From Gloeobacterales cyanobacterium (lineage in GTDB: Bacteria; Cyanobacteriota; Cyanobacteriia; Gloeobacterales; PMM-0068): DNA of 64,000 nt. A program made the position numbers and the translations under genes. Below are positions 35,105 through 41,738 of this stretch, one piece after another; position 1 is the stretch's first letter, and the number at the start of each line of letters is the position of its first letter. Location: positions 320,001 through 384,000 of the forward strand of contig JBBRSB010000001.1 in NCBI GenBank assembly GCA_038245785.1, given 5' to 3'. The notes beneath the pieces are model-generated. The model was not told the DNA's origin. It made no database searches and worked only from the letters and a program-made list of their open reading frames with translations.

Positions 35105-35961
35105 CTACTTCTCTGCGCAATCCCTTACGTTCTGGCCTCACCTGGGGGCTTGCCCTAGTCTATCTGGGGCTGCTGCTATTCTTGCCTGTGGCAGGACTGT
35201 TCTTAAAAACGTTAGAGCTCCCCTTGCCTGAACTTTGGGCCTTGGTGACGACTCCAGTGGCGGTGGAAACTTACAAACTGACCTTCGGTGGGGCTTTGAT
35301 CGCAGCGCTGATCAATATGGTCTTCGGGGTGGTCTTGGCCTGGATTCTGGTGCGCTACGACTTTCCTGGCAAGCGCCTTGCGGATGGTCTGATTGACTTG
35401 CCCTTCGCCATTCCGACAGCGGTAGCCGGTCTTACTCTGGCCGTCCTCTATGGTCCTGGGGGCGTTCTTGGGCAATTCCTGGACCCCGGTACACCCTTGG
35501 GGAACCTGTTCGCCCTCTTAGGGATTCAAGAGGTGCGTCTGGCCTATTCCCAGTTTGGCGTGGTTCTGGCGATGACCTTCGTCACCGTTCCCTTTGTCGT
35601 GCGCACCGTGCAGCCCGTTCTTCTGGAAATAGAGCCGGCCTTAGAAGAAGCCGCTTCCTCTCTGGGAGCGACGAACTGGCAGACCTTCCGCTTGGTGATT
35701 TTCCCTCAGCTCCTACCCGCCATCTTGACCGGATTTACCCTCGCTTTTGCGCGGGCGATTGGAGAATATGGCTCCGTGGTCTTGATTTCTGGAAACGTGC
35801 CCTACGAAACCCTGACTACTCCAGTCTACATTTTTCAGCGTTTGGAAGAATTCGATTACGCAGGAGCCACCGCCGTTTCCGTGGTCCTCTTGACCCTCTC
35901 TCTGGTGATTTTGCTTAGCATCAATGCCCTACAAGCCTGGAGTCGCCGCTATGACAGCTAG
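35101..35961 (+). CDS. cysT: Sulfate ABC transporter permease
   Basis: DLPFAIPTAVAG, PFVVRTVQPVL, ARAIGEYGSV. Confidence 0.95.
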   Translation: MTTSLRNPLRSGLTWGLALVYLGLLLFLPVAGLFLKTLELPLPELWALVTTPVAVETYKLTFGGALIAALINMVFGVVLAWILVRYDFPGKRLADGLIDLPFAIPTAVAGLTLAVLYGPGGVLGQFLDPGTPLGNLFALLGIQEVRLAYSQFGVVLAMTFVTVPFVVRTVQPVLLEIEPALEEAASSLGATNWQTFRLVIFPQLLPAILTGFTLAFARAIGEYGSVVLISGNVPYETLTTPVYIFQRLEEFDYAGATAVSVVLLTLSLVILLSINALQAWSRRYDS

Positions 35962-36814
35962 TCAGCCTGCGAGAGAAACGGCGCTATCTACGGCTGCTCC
36001 TTTGCCGTGGGGACGCTATGCCTTAATCACATTAGGGCTCAGCTTTTTAGCCTTGGTCGTGCTGTTTCCGCTGTTCAATATTCTCTATCAGGCCTTTCAA
36101 GGAGGCTTGGGAGCCTATTGGCAGGGAATTTCAAACCCAGAAGCTCTCAGTGCCATTTCCCTCACACTGTTAGTGGTGCTGATCGTCGTTCCGGTCAATA
36201 CCATTTTTGGTGTCTTGGTTGCCTGGGTGCTCGCCCGTTATCAGTTTCCCGGCAAGCTCTTCTTCCTCGGAATCTTGGACCTTCCCTTTGCTATCTCGCC
36301 CGTAGTGGCAGGGATGATGCATGTGATTCTCTACAGCCCAACTAAAGGGATTCTGGGTCCTTGGCTAGAGTCCTTGCATATCAGAATTTTGTTTGCTCCC
36401 CTGGGCGTAATCTTGGTTACTTTATTCGTCACGCTGCCTTTTGTGGCCCGTGAAGTCTTGCCCGTCCTTCAAGAATTGGGTGATGAAGAAGAGCAAGCGG
36501 CAGCCACCTTGGGCGCCAGTCCCTGGGAAACTTTTTGGTATGTGACCTTGCCCAATATCCGTTGGGCGCTCCTCTATGGGGTTATCCTGTGCACAGCGCG
36601 GGCTTTAGGAGAATTTGGAGCCGTTTCTGTAGTCTCCGGTAAATTGATCAACCAAACAGAAACGCTCACTTTGCATATTGAGCAGGCCTATGGTGAATAC
36701 CAAACCGTAGCTGCCTTTGCCTGCGCTTCTCTCTTAACCCTGTTGGCCGTAGTTACCCTAGTGGTTCAAGAGCTGATCAAGAGCAAACAGCCTTCTTTAG
36801 AAGCAGAAGAATAA
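35951..36814 (+). CDS. cysW: Sulfate ABC transporter permease
   Basis: DLPFAISPVVAG, PFVAREVLP, ARALGEFGAVSVVSG. Confidence 0.95.
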   Translation: MTASQPARETALSTAAPLPWGRYALITLGLSFLALVVLFPLFNILYQAFQGGLGAYWQGISNPEALSAISLTLLVVLIVVPVNTIFGVLVAWVLARYQFPGKLFFLGILDLPFAISPVVAGMMHVILYSPTKGILGPWLESLHIRILFAPLGVILVTLFVTLPFVAREVLPVLQELGDEEEQAAATLGASPWETFWYVTLPNIRWALLYGVILCTARALGEFGAVSVVSGKLINQTETLTLHIEQAYGEYQTVAAFACASLLTLLAVVTLVVQELIKSKQPSLEAEE

Positions 36815-36846
36815 TCCGTCAGCAGAGTTCGTAGGAGCCTGAAGCC

Positions 36847-37857
36847 ATGGGAATCACAGTCCAAAACGTCAGTAAACAGTTCGGCAATTTTCAAGCGGTT
36901 GACCACGTTTCGCTAGAAGTGGAAGCAGGCTCCTTGGTAGCCCTCCTCGGCCCTAGTGGTTCAGGAAAGTCCACCTTGCTACGTTTGATTGCCGGGCTAG
37001 AATCGCCTGACTCTGGCAAAATCTTTCTCACTGGAGAAGATGCCACCACCCGTACGGTACAAGAACGGAACATTGGTTTTGTCTTTCAGCATTACGCCCT
37101 GTTCAAGCATTTGACGGTAGCAGAGAATATTGGCTTTGGCCTGAAACTCCGCAAAGCGGATCAAACTACTATCAAAAAACGGGTGGATGAACTCTTAGAG
37201 CTGGTCCAATTGGCAGGACTGGCCAAGCGCTATCCCAATCAACTTTCTGGCGGCCAACGCCAACGGGTTGCCCTGGCTCGGGCCTTAGCCGTAGAACCGA
37301 CGGTACTGCTCCTGGATGAACCCTTTGGAGCCCTGGATGCCAAGGTGCGCAAAGATCTCAGAGCATGGCTACGCCGTCTGCATGATGAAGTGCATGTGAC
37401 TTCGGTATTCGTTACCCATGACCAAGAAGAAGCCCTAGAGGTGGCCGACAAAATCGTAGTCATGAATAAGGGCAAGATTGAACAAATCGGCTCCGCTCAG
37501 GAGATCTATGACCATCCAAAAACGCCCTTTGTCATGGGCTTTATTGGTCCGGTGAATGTAGTCCCTTCCGATTCGCCCTTAGTGAAATCGATGAATCCTA
37601 ATGGTCAAGATCTGTTTATCCGGCCCCATGACATAGAACTCCTGGCTAACCCTACCGAAGGGGCAAGCGGATTCACGATCCGACGGATAACGCATTTGGG
37701 CTGGGAAGTCCAGGTGGAATTGACCTCTGGCTACGACCATTCGATCACCGCCCATCTCAATAGAGATGACTTTGACCGACTGAATCCCCAAGTCGGCCAG
37801 CAAGTTTTTGTTCGAACGAAAGACGCCAAGTCTTTTGTTGCAGATTATTCGATTTAG
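36847..37857 (+). CDS. cysA: Sulfate ABC transporter ATPase
   Basis: [40 protein letters not shown]-like tail. Confidence 0.96.
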
Positions 37858-38046
37858 GGATAATGGGGCCAGAAACAGGCTACAGGGGCCGAACGGAGAC
37901 GTCACATTCACATATCTTTACCGTTTCCTCTGTTATTGCACTAGCTACAGCAGGTAAGATGCACTCCTAGAAGGGGTTGTATCTCTACTCCAAGATTCTA
38001 ATTGCTATATGTCCTTTCTGTTTTATTGCCGGTAAAGGAAGAAAAC

Positions 38047-38991
38047 ATGACCAAAACCTTAAATCGTTGGCTAGTGGGCTTGACAGCTGGTGTCCTGTGC
38101 CTCACGGCCAACTCAACAGCTTTTGCCCAATCGGTGCCTCAAGAGTTAGCCAGTACGGCTAAGGACGCCTGCGTTGATGCAGCCAAGGCAAAGGGATTTC
38201 GACTGAAGAAGGTGGTGTCTGTTGCCCCTAAGGCTGATGGCGCAACGGTGATTTTAAGTCTGGATCGCGCTAAACAACTGTTCAAGCTCACCTGTGGGTA
38301 CACAAAGTCCGCTGGAGCTGTGATTGGGGGAGAAAAATCTAATGCTTCCGCTGCCACTCCTTCTCCTGCGCCTGCGGCTGCGGCTGAATCATCTGCGACC
38401 AAACCTGCCCCTCCCTCGCCTGAATCTGCTCCTGCGCCTGCAGCCGCTGCTGCCGCTGCTCCAACGGCTGCAGGGACTCAGCCCACTTTCGGTTCTGCAG
38501 CCCCCTGTAAGAATGTCCCTGCTTTCCAAGAGAAGAAGACGGCTGCACTGGCTGCGGTGGACGAACAGATTGCCAAAGCTACTATCGCTGCCGTTCCCAC
38601 CTTCACGATTATTCCAGGAGTCACGGGTAGCCAATCTCTGAAGCAGGAGTGGGAAACCAAAAAAGCTTCGTTAGCAGACAAGTTTGCCCGTTATGAAAAG
38701 CCTGGTGTCCTTTGTGGCGTGGATGATGGCAATCCTCGCTTGATTGCAGATGGTCGCTGGAACCATGCTGGGGACTTCATTATTCCTAGCATCCTGTTCC
38801 TCTATGTCGCTGGAGCGCTGGGCTGGGCTGGACGAGATTACCTGGGCAAGGCCAAGGGAGATGCCAATCTAGAAATTATGATTGATATCCCCATGGCGTT
38901 ACAGTCTCTTCTTGCTGGCTTGCTATGGCCTATCCAGGCTATTCCTCAATTGATTTCGGGCTCTATCCGAAATGACACTGTCAAACCTTAA
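38047..38991 (+). CDS. psaF: Photosystem I subunit III (PsaF) with extra N-terminal domain and Pro/Ala linker
   Basis: PCKNVPAF...FARY..LCG.DGNPRLIADGRWNHAGDFIIPSILFLYVAGALGWAGRDYL...EIMIDIP...WP; 314 aa. Confidence 0.92.
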   Translation: MTKTLNRWLVGLTAGVLCLTANSTAFAQSVPQELASTAKDACVDAAKAKGFRLKKVVSVAPKADGATVILSLDRAKQLFKLTCGYTKSAGAVIGGEKSNASAATPSPAPAAAAESSATKPAPPSPESAPAPAAAAAAAPTAAGTQPTFGSAAPCKNVPAFQEKKTAALAAVDEQIAKATIAAVPTFTIIPGVTGSQSLKQEWETKKASLADKFARYEKPGVLCGVDDGNPRLIADGRWNHAGDFIIPSILFLYVAGALGWAGRDYLGKAKGDANLEIMIDIPMALQSLLAGLLWPIQAIPQLISGSIRNDTVKP

Positions 38992-39007
38992 TCCGGAGTC
39001 TGTAGCT

Positions 39008-39118
39008 ATGCGTATTCCCGCACCTATTGGTGGACTATTATTCATCGCAATTAGTCTTGCGGCCCTCATGTGGGCCAACATTCTGACGAACTATCCTCTG
39101 TTCCATCCCATGTCCTAG
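39008..39118 (+). CDS. psaJ: Photosystem I subunit IX (PsaJ), divergent, not in the ORF track
   Basis: MRIPAPIGGLLFIAISLAALMWANILTNYPLFHPMS; AP...N...LFHP pattern, single TM, 16 nt after psaF. Confidence 0.8.
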   Translation: MRIPAPIGGLLFIAISLAALMWANILTNYPLFHPMS

Positions 39119-39141
39119 CAGCACTTTCTGGAACTTGCTCT

Positions 39142-39179
39142 AAAAAAAGCCCCCTAGAGATTAATCTCTAGGGGGCTTT
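39142..39179. terminator. Bidirectional intrinsic terminator
   Basis: AAAAAAAGCCCCCTAGAGATTAATCTCTAGGGGGCTTT between convergent psaJ and hup. Confidence 0.85.
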
Positions 39180-39196: not shown

Positions 39197-39487
39197 TTAC
39201 TTTTTCGCTTTCTGAGCTTCTACTTTCTCTTTGAAGGACTTACCAGCAGAGAAAGCAGGCACCACTGTGGCAGGAATGGTCATTTTCTTACCAGACTGAG
39301 GGTTACGACCCTCACGCTCTTTACGTTCCCGGCGCTCAAATGAACCAAAACCGACCAAGGTCACTTTGTCGTCTTCAGACACGGCATCAACGATAGTTTC
39401 CAAAGCAGCGGTGATGATGGCATCAACGTCTTTCTTTGTGTGGCTCGTCCGCTTTGCTACAGCGTCTACCAATTCACCTTTATTCAT
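39197..39487 (-). CDS. hup: HU DNA-binding protein
   Basis: MNKGELVDAVA, VTLVGFGSF, REGRNPQSG, PAFSAGK. Confidence 0.97.
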   Translation of the reverse strand: MNKGELVDAVAKRTSHTKKDVDAIITAALETIVDAVSEDDKVTLVGFGSFERRERKEREGRNPQSGKKMTIPATVVPAFSAGKSFKEKVEAQKAKK

Positions 39488-39941: not shown

Positions 39942-41738
39942 CTAGCGCGCTACTTTTTTAGGAGTTTTGACCGGGGGGTGCGCTACTTGCGCTCCCTTCT
40001 TGCGACTCATATAAACGTCGTAGATCTTCTTTGCCACAGGGGCTGCATCGGTTCCCCCGTGCCCTCCCCCTTCCACAAAGACGCAGATCGCAATTTCAGG
40101 ATTGTCGTAGGGCGCATAGCCTACAAAAACGGCATGGGTGCGGTGGGAATGGAAGTCTTCGGCCGTTCCGGTTTTCCCTGCAAAGCTTGTAGTTCCCAAA
40201 ACGCCACGGGCGGTACCACTGGCCACCACCTGTCTAAGACCATTGCGGACCACGGCTAAGGTTTCTGGTTTGAGGCTAAGGCTGGTTTTGACAGGAGGCT
40301 CTCCTTTCAGCAAATGCGGCTCGACGCGATAGCCGCCATTGGCAATGACAGAAACCATGACTGCATTCTGTAGCGGTGTAGACAGGTTAAACCCCTGTCC
40401 AATAGCCATGTTGGCCGTATCCCCTGGATACCATTTTTGCTTAAACGTCCTCAGCTTGTAGGCTTCACTGGGCACTATCCCCGCCGATTCAGACTGCAGG
40501 TTTAAGCTCGTTCTTTGTCCATAGCCAAATTTGCGGGCCATGGCCCCGATCCGTTCTGGACCAAGACGCAGCCCCACTTGATAGAAGAAGGTATCAGAAC
40601 TGACGGCCAAAGCTCTCGGAAAGCCGATGGTGCCAAAGCCTCGATGATTATGTTCTCCAAAGCGGCGGCTTCCCACCTGCAGGCTCCCGAAGGTATTGAG
40701 TACGGATTTCGGGTTAAACAGGCCTGACTCTAGGGCCGCCGTCGTCATGATGATCTTATAGGTACTGGCTGGCGGATAGGGGCGCACACCACGGTTTAGG
40801 AAGGGATGGTCCAGCTGGCGGAAATCCTGCCATTCTTTCTTATTGATCTTGTGCGAGAACATGTTCGGGTTGAAGTTAGGGTTGGAAGCCATCACTAAGA
40901 CTTCACCTGTTTTTGGCTCTATGGCTACCACCGCCCCCATGCGGGTCCCTAGTCCTTCCTGTGCTGCTTTTTGCATGTCCAGGTCTAGGGAAAGCGTCAC
41001 ATCTCCCCCCTTCTGCGATTTAATTGTCCCTAAGACACGCTTGACTTGTCCTGAGGCATCTACTTCTACCTGTTGACCGCCCCATTGTCCGTGCATCTGG
41101 GATTCAAATAACTGTTCTGCCCCCATCTTGCCGACAATGTCCCCAAGTTTGTAGCCTTGGTCTTTGCGGCGCTCCAGTTCTTTCTCTGAAATTTCTCCGG
41201 TATAGCCCAGGACTTGGGAGGCTAAATTGCCGTGAGGATACAAGCGACTGAGTTCAGCATCGACTCTTACGCCTGGCAAATCTGCTCCATGTTCTTTCAT
41301 CCGGATCACAAAGGCTGGATCTAAGCCTTGGAGCAAACGAACAGGATAGGGAGAGCGGAATCCTGCAATGCGCAGTTTCCGGTACATCTCTTCAGAGGTA
41401 AGACCCGTATAGGGAGCTAGACGCTCCAGAACCGCTGGCCATTTTCGAGGGCGCACCTGGAGCGGGTCTAGGAACAAAGAGTAGGTTAACTGACTACTGA
41501 CCAAAACTTTACCGTTGCGGTCTAGGAGTTCTCCCCGTTCTGGAGCCTTTGGCAAGAGACGGATACGGTTACTTTCAGCTTGCTCTCGATGTTCTGCGCC
41601 TTCAACAAGCTGTAAGAGGACCAAGCGAAGCACCAAGGCACCCAACAGCGTAGCGCCAATACCCAAGAGGGTAATGGCCCTTAAGCCACCCCCGGACCAT
41701 CGTTTTTCTTTTTCGTCAGTGCCTGTGCCTAGCTGCAT
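39942..41738 (-). CDS. mrdA: Penicillin-binding protein 2
   Basis: RGELLDRNG, PASTYK, SSDTFFY, GKTGTAE. Confidence 0.95.
   Translation of the reverse strand: MQLGTGTDEKEKRWSGGGLRAITLLGIGATLLGALVLRLVLLQLVEGAEHREQAESNRIRLLPKAPERGELLDRNGKVLVSSQLTYSLFLDPLQVRPRKWPAVLERLAPYTGLTSEEMYRKLRIAGFRSPYPVRLLQGLDPAFVIRMKEHGADLPGVRVDAELSRLYPHGNLASQVLGYTGEISEKELERRKDQGYKLGDIVGKMGAEQLFESQMHGQWGGQQVEVDASGQVKRVLGTIKSQKGGDVTLSLDLDMQKAAQEGLGTRMGAVVAIEPKTGEVLVMASNPNFNPNMFSHKINKKEWQDFRQLDHPFLNRGVRPYPPASTYKIIMTTAALESGLFNPKSVLNTFGSLQVGSRRFGEHNHRGFGTIGFPRALAVSSDTFFYQVGLRLGPERIGAMARKFGYGQRTSLNLQSESAGIVPSEAYKLRTFKQKWYPGDTANMAIGQGFNLSTPLQNAVMVSVIANGGYRVEPHLLKGEPPVKTSLSLKPETLAVVRNGLRQVVASGTARGVLGTTSFAGKTGTAEDFHSHRTHAVFVGYAPYDNPEIAICVFVEGGGHGGTDAAPVAKKIYDVYMSRKKGAQVAHPPVKTPKKVAR

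Follow-up and report, generated by a model that had tools for sequence, protein, structure and literature searches.

The DNA analysed here is a stretch of 64,000 nucleotides (“the window”: positions 320,001 to 384,000, forward strand, of contig JBBRSB010000001.1, assembly GCA_038245785.1) from a Gloeobacterales cyanobacterium whose genome we call G000. It encodes a long version of PsaF, a subunit of photosystem I (PSI), in which a compact domain with two cysteines and a flexible Ala/Pro-rich tether stand between the signal peptide and the PsaF core. Of the anatomy and the origin of this protein we are highly confident: the pattern fits a single event in which psaF would have captured the domain-plus-tether module from a family of membrane proteins that also carry a bacterial SH3 domain (the SH3-type family). 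What we consider the best explanation of the whole, and one whose chances seem about even to us, is that the addition acts as a tethered periplasmic module on the PsaF of PSI.

A long PsaF in one reading frame

On the plus strand the psaF frame opens with a TTG at 38002 and closes with the stop codon at 38989–38991; the 314-residue product starts at ATG 38047 (38047..38991). An earlier note, made from the letters of the window alone, had described exactly this single-frame product, with a 27-residue signal peptide ending in AFA, a compact two-Cys domain, a Pro/Ala/Ser-rich linker and an intact PsaF core. The description stands in all its parts; only the border between tether and core has to be moved, from 38499/38500 to about 38481/38482. 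The features are listed in Table 1. The AAGGAAG stretch in front of the gene and the psaF start show no difference among G000 and two genomes of the same genus, G001 and G002. Cleavage of the signal peptide, read by eye, would leave QSVPQELASTAK as the N-terminus, and the signal peptide can be taken as PsaF's own, because the short PsaFs described below (of G002 and of the clusters P0019 and P0020) begin with the same one.

The core is that of a genuine PsaF. Pfam family PF02507 (PSI_PsaF) matches residues 140–308 over profile positions 13–169 of 172, with 126.2 bits (cut-off 27, a curated value) and E 1.6e-36. The best solved relative is the PsaF of the Anthocerotibacter panamensis PSI structure 9E0J, which aligns to residues 147–314 (E 2.1e-35), and the second best that of Gloeobacter violaceus, 7F4V; the assignment of these entries to the two species follows the available part of PMC12107172. 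C154, C223 and the block G242–L266 are invariant in 23 aligned sequences, the PsaF of Cyanaurora included. A clade-specific insertion of 13–15 residues (TIAAVPTFTIIPGVTG) lies in the periplasmic part of the core at residues ~181–196 (38587..38634); it is absent from 9E0J and from the Cyanaurora PsaF, and the AlphaFold2 confidence is low there.

Between domain and core, 92% of tether residues 96–145 are P, A, S, T or E, and the AlphaFold2 confidence (predicted local distance difference test, pLDDT) is low throughout residues 88–148. The tether is 24–50 residues long in 18 long forms and hypervariable, with 47% Ala and 20% Pro. In 5 of the 18, and in a G001 fragment as well, a block HTNV(I/V)KSSD is conserved within it; in fuller form the block reads ..EE[VQ][IV]HTNV[IV]KSSD[VA][QN]AQ[GE]AG.. 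(clusters P0004, P0005, P0006, P0008 and P0016, and G001, L015:1-663, minus strand). The block could represent a short functional motif.

The fusion outside the source assembly

A fusion of this kind could be an assembly chimera, or a decaying fusion without consequence: the G000 assembly consists of 255 contigs, and the G001 gene lies in two pieces at contig ends, broken inside the low-complexity tether. We regard this as extremely improbable. A word-indexed search of 5.8 billion proteins gave 24 matches to the long PsaF, as clusters of 90% identity. Sixteen long-form clusters cover 100% of the query and a seventeenth 86%; they are 299–331 residues long, 68–95% identical to it, and originate independently from jgi, lgn, ena and ncbi sources, where those with a source name are annotated just as “photosystem I subunit III” or “subunit 3”. 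The G001 gene, too, is of the long form and has the same synteny (cysA-like gene upstream, hup downstream).

Sequencing data agree with this. The probable source run covers 37950–39150 with 0 differences. A DNA contig of 2074 nt from another study (X4) covers 37951–39116 with 76 differences, and a contig of 1155 nt from an RNA-seq library of a third study (X18) covers 37969–39096 with 80; each of the two spans the 5′ untranslated region, domain, tether, core and psaJ. RNA libraries may contain DNA, so X18 is weak evidence of expression only. A joint in a further run, X2 (38294 to 38485, 190 nt skipped, side 30), was considered as a deletion and set aside, since a relative whose tether has diverged explains it best. 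Every junction of the psaF fusion is supported outside the source assembly.

The earlier note had named a chimeric junction among the facts that would undo its reading, and had proposed a check for a second, normal psaF. The junctions have just been described; as to the second gene, a PF02507 profile search of G000 (98.24% complete) gave one match, which is this psaF. The note had also suggested collecting homologues of more than 250 residues, and these are the 17 long-form clusters above; the module proved optional, with short forms in G002 and in two metagenomic clusters. Its placement of the extra domain on the periplasmic, donor-side N-terminus likewise holds, as a predicted position: the fusion is conserved, and no other PsaF was found in the genome.

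The domain is also under selection. In the 23-sequence alignment it is well conserved, both cysteines included, and the tether varies in length and sequence. Comparison of G000 with each of the two G001 fragments gives ratios of nonsynonymous to synonymous substitution rates (dN/dS) of 0.147 and 0.154 in the domain and of 0.117 and 0.120 in the core; in the tether the ratio is saturated, or 0.26. These values come from one species pair, with a dS of ~1.6 for the domain, near saturation. A scan of metagenome contigs for further long-form DNA gave 1 distant locus, so that G000 and G001 provide the whole comparison. The domain is kept under purifying selection, which again speaks against a decaying fusion.

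A small family of two-Cys domains

Pfam and NCBIfam gave no family at E ≤ 1 for residues 28–95, except for a chance-level match to TIGR03045 (E 0.064), and none of the peptidoglycan-binding families (OmpA-like, LysM, SH3b, PG_binding) matches them. Relatives were nevertheless found. An exhaustive HMMER (phmmer) search with residues 28–101 against 1.84 billion representatives, at E ≤ 1e-3, gave 26 representatives with E 9e-25 to 4.5e-4, seven of them at E ≤ 1e-10: one long PsaF and 25 other proteins of 138–378 residues. In these the domain occupies about residues 26–114, directly behind a signal peptide, and is followed by a T/P/A-rich tether, a hydrophobic segment of the WWLLLPLIGLPLLL type, basic residues and a bacterial SH3 domain. 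Of the 26 relatives scanned, 23 have SH3_3, and two of the three that lack it are short fragments. By the positive-inside rule, the SH3b part would lie in the cytoplasm. Among the Pfam counts of the family alignment, SH3b is the sole family of the peptidoglycan-binding type, and it sits in the C-terminal parts of the relatives.

A profile search with the domain gave 49 members. Three of them have an NCBI organism name, and all three are cyanobacterial “SH3 domain-containing protein” entries (Drouetiella hepatica Uher 2000/2452, Leptolyngbya sp. NK1-12 and the metagenome-assembled genome Leptolyngbyaceae SM2_3_12). The alignment positions C15, A19, G23 and C56, both cysteines among them, show no variation across the 75 family members aligned. 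The PsaF-linked domain has the hallmarks of the family, namely the KGF and KLTCGY motifs and the Cys pair behind a signal peptide; the rest of the SH3-type architecture, a transmembrane helix and an SH3b domain (PF08239), is replaced by PsaF, which follows the tether instead.

Across 301 cyanobacterial genomes the N-terminal domain is found, among the matches listed, in about 10: G000, G001, five genomes of family f18, G179, G052 and G261. Among the same matches there is none in 11 other Gloeobacterales or in G002. G001 carries an SH3-type paralog (C329 568..1269); the corresponding search of G000 did not find one. The SH3-type relatives have differing neighbours at the 4 loci inspected (GNAT, gyrase, response regulator, BrkB, fatty-acid hydroxylase), which give no functional hint; at locus L023 a further SH3-domain open reading frame lies beside the relative. 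Nor do source names, the domain scan or gene neighbourhoods hint at a function of the SH3-type family.

The domain also occurs in more distant settings. One copy (L033:1419-3215, G052:C166) belongs to a 598-residue protein composed of signal peptide, domain, Pro-rich linker, transmembrane helix and two DUF2382 domains. A second is in a 167-residue protein (L034:639-1142, G261), and a third in a 261-residue protein (L035:566-1351, G156:C83) with an Asp-rich linker and a C-terminal domain without family; a PepSY-like second domain was suspected in the last, but Pfam gave 0 families. As judged from these relatives, bitopic membrane proteins carry the domain as a mobile extracytoplasmic module, and it forms a small cyanobacterial family. 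The family is one that had previously neither a name nor recognition.

In a domain tree built on 73 columns, in which many forks are open, all 12 of the 12 PsaF-linked copies form one clade (support 88 in the Shimodaira–Hasegawa-like approximate likelihood ratio test) that branches from inside the SH3-type diversity. This topology, with one PsaF-linked clade inside the family, fits a single capture by psaF. The clade is also set apart by its charge. The G000 domain is basic (net +6, pI 9.7), and the PsaF-linked domains as a whole range from +2 to +6 with a median of +5 (12/12); the SH3-type domains (n = 63) range from −9 to +4 with a median of −1, and 7 of the 63 reach +2 or more. The switches are located at residue 47 at the end of the helix (E to K), residue 55 in strand 1 (E/D to K), residues 75–76 in the β2–β3 turn (D-G to S-K) and residue 95.

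Short forms and the history of the module

The short PsaFs, of G002 and of clusters P0019 and P0020, are 201–208 residues long (P0019 and P0020 as deposited; the G002 reading frame has 201 from its ATG), and other PsaFs found in Gloeobacterales have 173–184. In the short forms the same signal peptide sits almost directly on the core (..SYAQ-EAP-KPTFGS..), and the insertion point of the module in the long forms is exactly behind the signal-peptidase site. The cores of short P0020 and long P0012 are 97% identical. The module is thus an accessory, since it is absent from some very close relatives.

How it came to be distributed in this way allows two accounts. In the maximum-likelihood tree of the core both short forms are nested among long forms, and the starred branches force at least two changes; in approximately unbiased (AU) tests, on the other side, grouping the short forms in one clade is not rejected (p 0.06), and neither is grouping the long forms in one (p 0.19). 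Because the junction is identical in both short forms, one event, perhaps spread by recombination, can be argued. The history may therefore have been gain only, or gain plus loss, and the tree and the AU tests together decide for neither.

Predicted fold of the domain

AlphaFold2 models the domain alone, from a 75-row alignment, with a mean pLDDT of 82.1 and a predicted template modelling score (pTM) of 0.64. The model has a helix at domain residues 5–21 and four strands after it, a predicted cystatin/PepSY-like fold. Of the two cysteines, C42 is part of the helix and C83 of strand 3, and a disulfide stapling the two together is plausible in an exported domain. For the whole PsaF the mean pLDDT is 55 and the pTM 0.25, a model too poor to judge docking of the domain onto PsaF.

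Comparisons of the model with solved structures did not name the domain. Identification by Foldseek, as the earlier note had proposed, failed, with no PDB match at E ≤ 0.001. VIA-align, run against 48,161 chains, placed 4r80_A, a de novo designed cystatin fold, first (Z 8.6, rmsd 2.6 Å over 71 residues), followed by cystatins at Z 6.4–7.2, 4exr at Z 6.6 and 7atk at Z 6.0, both of which we take to contain PepSY, and NTF2/VirB8-like folds at Z 5–6.8; in this method a Z below 8 may mean a mere common arrangement. A PDB profile search with the domain-only alignment gave just a spurious match to a repeat protein (BurrH, about 15 weak repeats summed), and one with the full family alignment gave only SH3b structures, which match the C-termini of the relatives. 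In a protein Atlas search the best scores were 0.78–0.79, below the level of a lead.

PepSY and cystatin folds are often inhibitors, and the module could accordingly be a transient pro-domain or protective cap, one that aids export or folding or shields PsaF and PSI from proteases. The resemblance to cystatins, 4exr and 7atk would suit such a role, as would weak, sub-threshold matches to PepSY_2 (PF13670) in 14 of 75 family members (best E 1.1e-3), a tether plausible as a protease-accessible site, and relatives that dispense with the module. The G000 domain itself, however, has no PepSY_2 match at E ≤ 1. Cystatin inhibitors carry a QxVxG hairpin motif; none was seen by eye in the domain alignment, and there is no cystatin sequence match either. 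In the parent family, moreover, membrane proteins keep the domain permanently, and a dN/dS of 0.15 together with an invariant Cys pair is more than one would expect of a mere leader. We consider the role of pro-domain or cap, with the module absent from mature PSI or functionally passive there, unlikely.

Electron donors

G000 has two plastocyanins. The soluble one, on contig C51, has a mature form with a net charge of +5 and a pI of 9.4. The second (C32:35355-35825, plus strand; L026:1324-1794) has a lipobox (..SLIAC|GG), then a linker of 33 residues composed of Pro, Ala, Thr and Glu, and then a cupredoxin domain (+5, pI 9.45). It is matched in 14 of the 14 Gloeobacterales genomes searched, and most of the matches begin at query residues 12–27, in the region of lipobox and linker. 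A membrane-tethered donor to PSI may be an order-wide trait of these thylakoid-less cyanobacteria. The only clear candidates for c-type cytochromes found in G000 are a membrane-anchored cytochrome and a PsbV-like protein.

These proteins bear on the proposal, made in the earlier note beside that of a cell-wall tether, that the domain captures the donor: by binding plastocyanin, or a c-type cytochrome, it would enrich this carrier at the donor side of PSI. The module is on the donor-side N-terminus of PsaF, it is strongly basic, as the PsaF extension of eukaryotes is, and the periplasm is an open compartment from which a soluble carrier could be lost. Yet both plastocyanins are basic too, which makes an electrostatic attraction of the eukaryotic type unlikely; one of them is already lipid-tethered; and the domain family is found mainly on membrane proteins with no part in photosynthesis (SH3b and DUF2382 proteins), in cyanobacteria that have thylakoids. 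Donor capture is thus disfavoured, and we hold it to be improbable. A predicted complex of the domain alignment with residues 30–122 of the soluble plastocyanin (P0096) gave no answer (score 0.00) and counts neither way.

A proposed tethered periplasmic module on PSI

We return to the reading that we prefer, in which the long PsaF carries its domain as a tethered module on PSI. After Sec export and cleavage of the signal peptide, mature PsaF would display the domain, probably stapled by its disulfide, on a flexible line. For 25–50 Ala/Pro-rich residues we estimate that it could reach roughly 5–15 nm above the periplasmic (donor-side) face of PSI. There the basic domain might bind a polyanionic or acidic component of the envelope, such as peptidoglycan, the inner face of the outer membrane or an envelope protein, and so hold or position PSI within the cytoplasmic membrane of a cell without thylakoids. 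Binding to an anionic envelope layer would agree with this basic charge and with a tether whose length allows it to clear the membrane surface; the cell-wall tether of the earlier note survives to this extent, and finds no counterpart in a match to a peptidoglycan-binding family. The lipobox plastocyanin with its Pro/Ala-rich linker supports the general theme of tethering in G000. Anchoring on the envelope as the function of the basic domain is a tentative proposal.

Such anchoring would be a second, independent solution to a task already proposed for PsaB. The PsaB of G. violaceus has a C-terminal extension of 155 residues, described in the available part of PMC12107172 as a fused sequence like an outer-membrane protein, confirmed by mass spectrometry and hypothesised, with citation of Inoue et al. 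2004, to anchor PSI to peptidoglycan. The PsaB of G000 is of normal length, ends in ...STAGLSSG and has no extension of the Gloeobacter type. The PsaF module is for this reason independent of it, as the earlier note had supposed. More broadly, and with still less assurance, we suggest that thylakoid-less cyanobacteria could have recruited periplasmic modules onto PSI at least twice independently, at the PsaB C-terminus and the PsaF N-terminus, and that the module described here might couple PSI to an envelope or periplasmic partner through its tether of ~5–15 nm and thereby control the position of PSI.

Several points weigh against this reading. Neither Pfam and NCBIfam nor Foldseek and VIA-align give any sign, in sequence or fold, of peptidoglycan or another ligand; the top rows of the Foldseek comparison are monellin and cystatin at E ~0.2, and the best VIA-align score is at the level of a common arrangement, so that the predicted fold is generic and suggests no function. 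The module could be clipped off after export. That the long PsaF is present in mature PSI is presumed from the single psaF found in the genome, and the contig from the RNA library (X18) is no proof that psaF is transcribed or the protein made. The short forms in near-identical backgrounds show that PSI can do without the module. Since the 12 basic domains belong to one clade, their charge shifted once in evolution and not 12 times. Finally, the analogous extension of G. violaceus PsaB was not seen in its structure, according to the part of PMC12107172 at hand.

The same basic charge would also suit a role within the membrane, in which the domains attach to one another, or to acidic periplasmic faces of neighbouring PSI or other complexes, and so cluster photosystems in membrane patches. 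A PSI trimer would carry three tethered modules, and a basic domain would presumably fit the acidic surface on which basic plastocyanin docks as well. The argument for such a lateral organisation is inferential throughout, and G000 has no SH3-type paralog, so that the arrangement would need no heterotypic partner of this type. We give it little credence.

The psaF locus

psaJ starts 16 nt behind psaF. In A. panamensis and Cyanaurora, too, psaJ adjoins psaF according to the available part of PMC12107172, and the order in G000 fits this adjacency. Between psaJ and the convergent hup gene lies a terminator-like hairpin with a folding energy of −28 kcal/mol (z −6.0 on the plus and −6.3 on the minus strand). 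Its T7 tail is on the minus strand only, that is, on the hup side, and termination of psaF–psaJ at this hairpin may for that reason be weak or factor-dependent. A consensus scan for promoters and terminators gave 0 sites and does not list the hairpin. The neighbours of psaF are ordinary, as far as identities can be read from translations, and the cysA-like and hup neighbours are kept in G001 and G002.

Table 1. Features in and around psaF, in window positions.
Feature	Position	Strand	Remarks and basis
CysW/CysT-like permease and CysA-like ABC ATPase	35924..37857		upstream of psaF; by reading translations
Shine–Dalgarno-like AAGGAAG	38035..38041	+	5 nt upstream of ATG 38047; read from the sequence
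PsaF signal peptide, residues 1–27	38047..38127	+	ends AFA|Q; Sec-like, cleavage site read by eye
Two-Cys domain, residues 28–95	38128..38331	+	C42 and C83, predicted helix and 4 strands; AlphaFold2, family alignment
Ala/Pro-rich flexible tether, residues 96–145	38332..38481	+	composition, low pLDDT
PsaF core, residues 146–314, plus stop codon	38482..38991	+	Pfam PF02507, alignment to PDB 9E0J/7F4V
psaJ, 36 residues	39008..39118	+	starts 16 nt after psaF; PsaJ (subunit IX) of 9E0J, E 2.9e-5
Perfect 15-bp hairpin, terminator-like	39146..39179	.	between psaJ and convergent hup (HU)
hup (HU)	39197..39487	−	convergent with psaF–psaJ
PBP2-type transpeptidase	39942..41738	−	downstream of psaF; by reading translations

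Comparison with known systems

The earlier note had seen in the long PsaF the window's best candidate for an undescribed system, and no description of it was found in the full-text literature searched (supplements not covered). The methods of PMC12107172, in the part available, say that the PsaF phylogeny was built after removal of singleton sequences with large insertions, and long PsaFs from NCBI, such as P0007, may thus have been met there and set aside. What is new is the recruitment, by the known subunit PsaF, of a domain whose family was undescribed; the proteins themselves are already public under the plain PsaF name.

The subunit composition of PSI is regarded as very conservative, and here a second early-branching lineage has a foreign domain under selection grafted onto PsaF, probably at the donor side of PSI. 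Natural variants with and without the module, at 97% identity of the core, offer a handle on how photosystems are organised in a cytoplasmic membrane that faces the cell wall. The work also defines a new small family of extracytoplasmic domains open to expression and assay; a practical limit is that the lineage is uncultured.

Compared with ordinary cyanobacterial PsaF, the long form shares the Cys pair, the transmembrane region GDFIIPS...GALGWAGRDYL and the adjoining psaJ, and differs by ~120 extra residues, domain and tether together, between signal peptide and core. The PsaFs in the structures of A. panamensis (9E0J chain P, 177 residues) and G. violaceus (7F4V chain aF, 181 residues) are ordinary in this sense and resemble residues 146–314.

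The closest likeness of the module itself is to the SH3-type family: the two-Cys domain is homologous (up to 59% identity, E 1.7e-15), with a signal peptide before it and a low-complexity tether after it. There, in contrast, the tether leads to a transmembrane helix and a predicted cytoplasmic SH3b domain, and the domains are mostly acidic or neutral. With cystatin/PepSY-like folds the model shares one helix on a four-stranded antiparallel sheet, but no significant sequence relationship.

Eukaryotic PsaF has a Lys-rich N-terminal helix-loop-helix extension that docks plastocyanin or cytochrome c6. This extension and the PsaF module are both basic additions on the donor-side N-terminus. The eukaryotic one, however, is short, lies within the lumenal domain and meets acidic donors, whereas the addition in G000 is a folded domain of +6 on a long tether, beside plastocyanins that are both +5.

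A parallel in kind is the PsaB extension of Gloeobacter. As far as the available part of PMC12107172 describes it, that extension, like the PsaF module, is an extra domain facing the periplasm on a PSI subunit of a thylakoid-less host, with a proposed role as a wall anchor; it differs in being on another subunit, at the other terminus and of another domain type, one like an outer-membrane protein.

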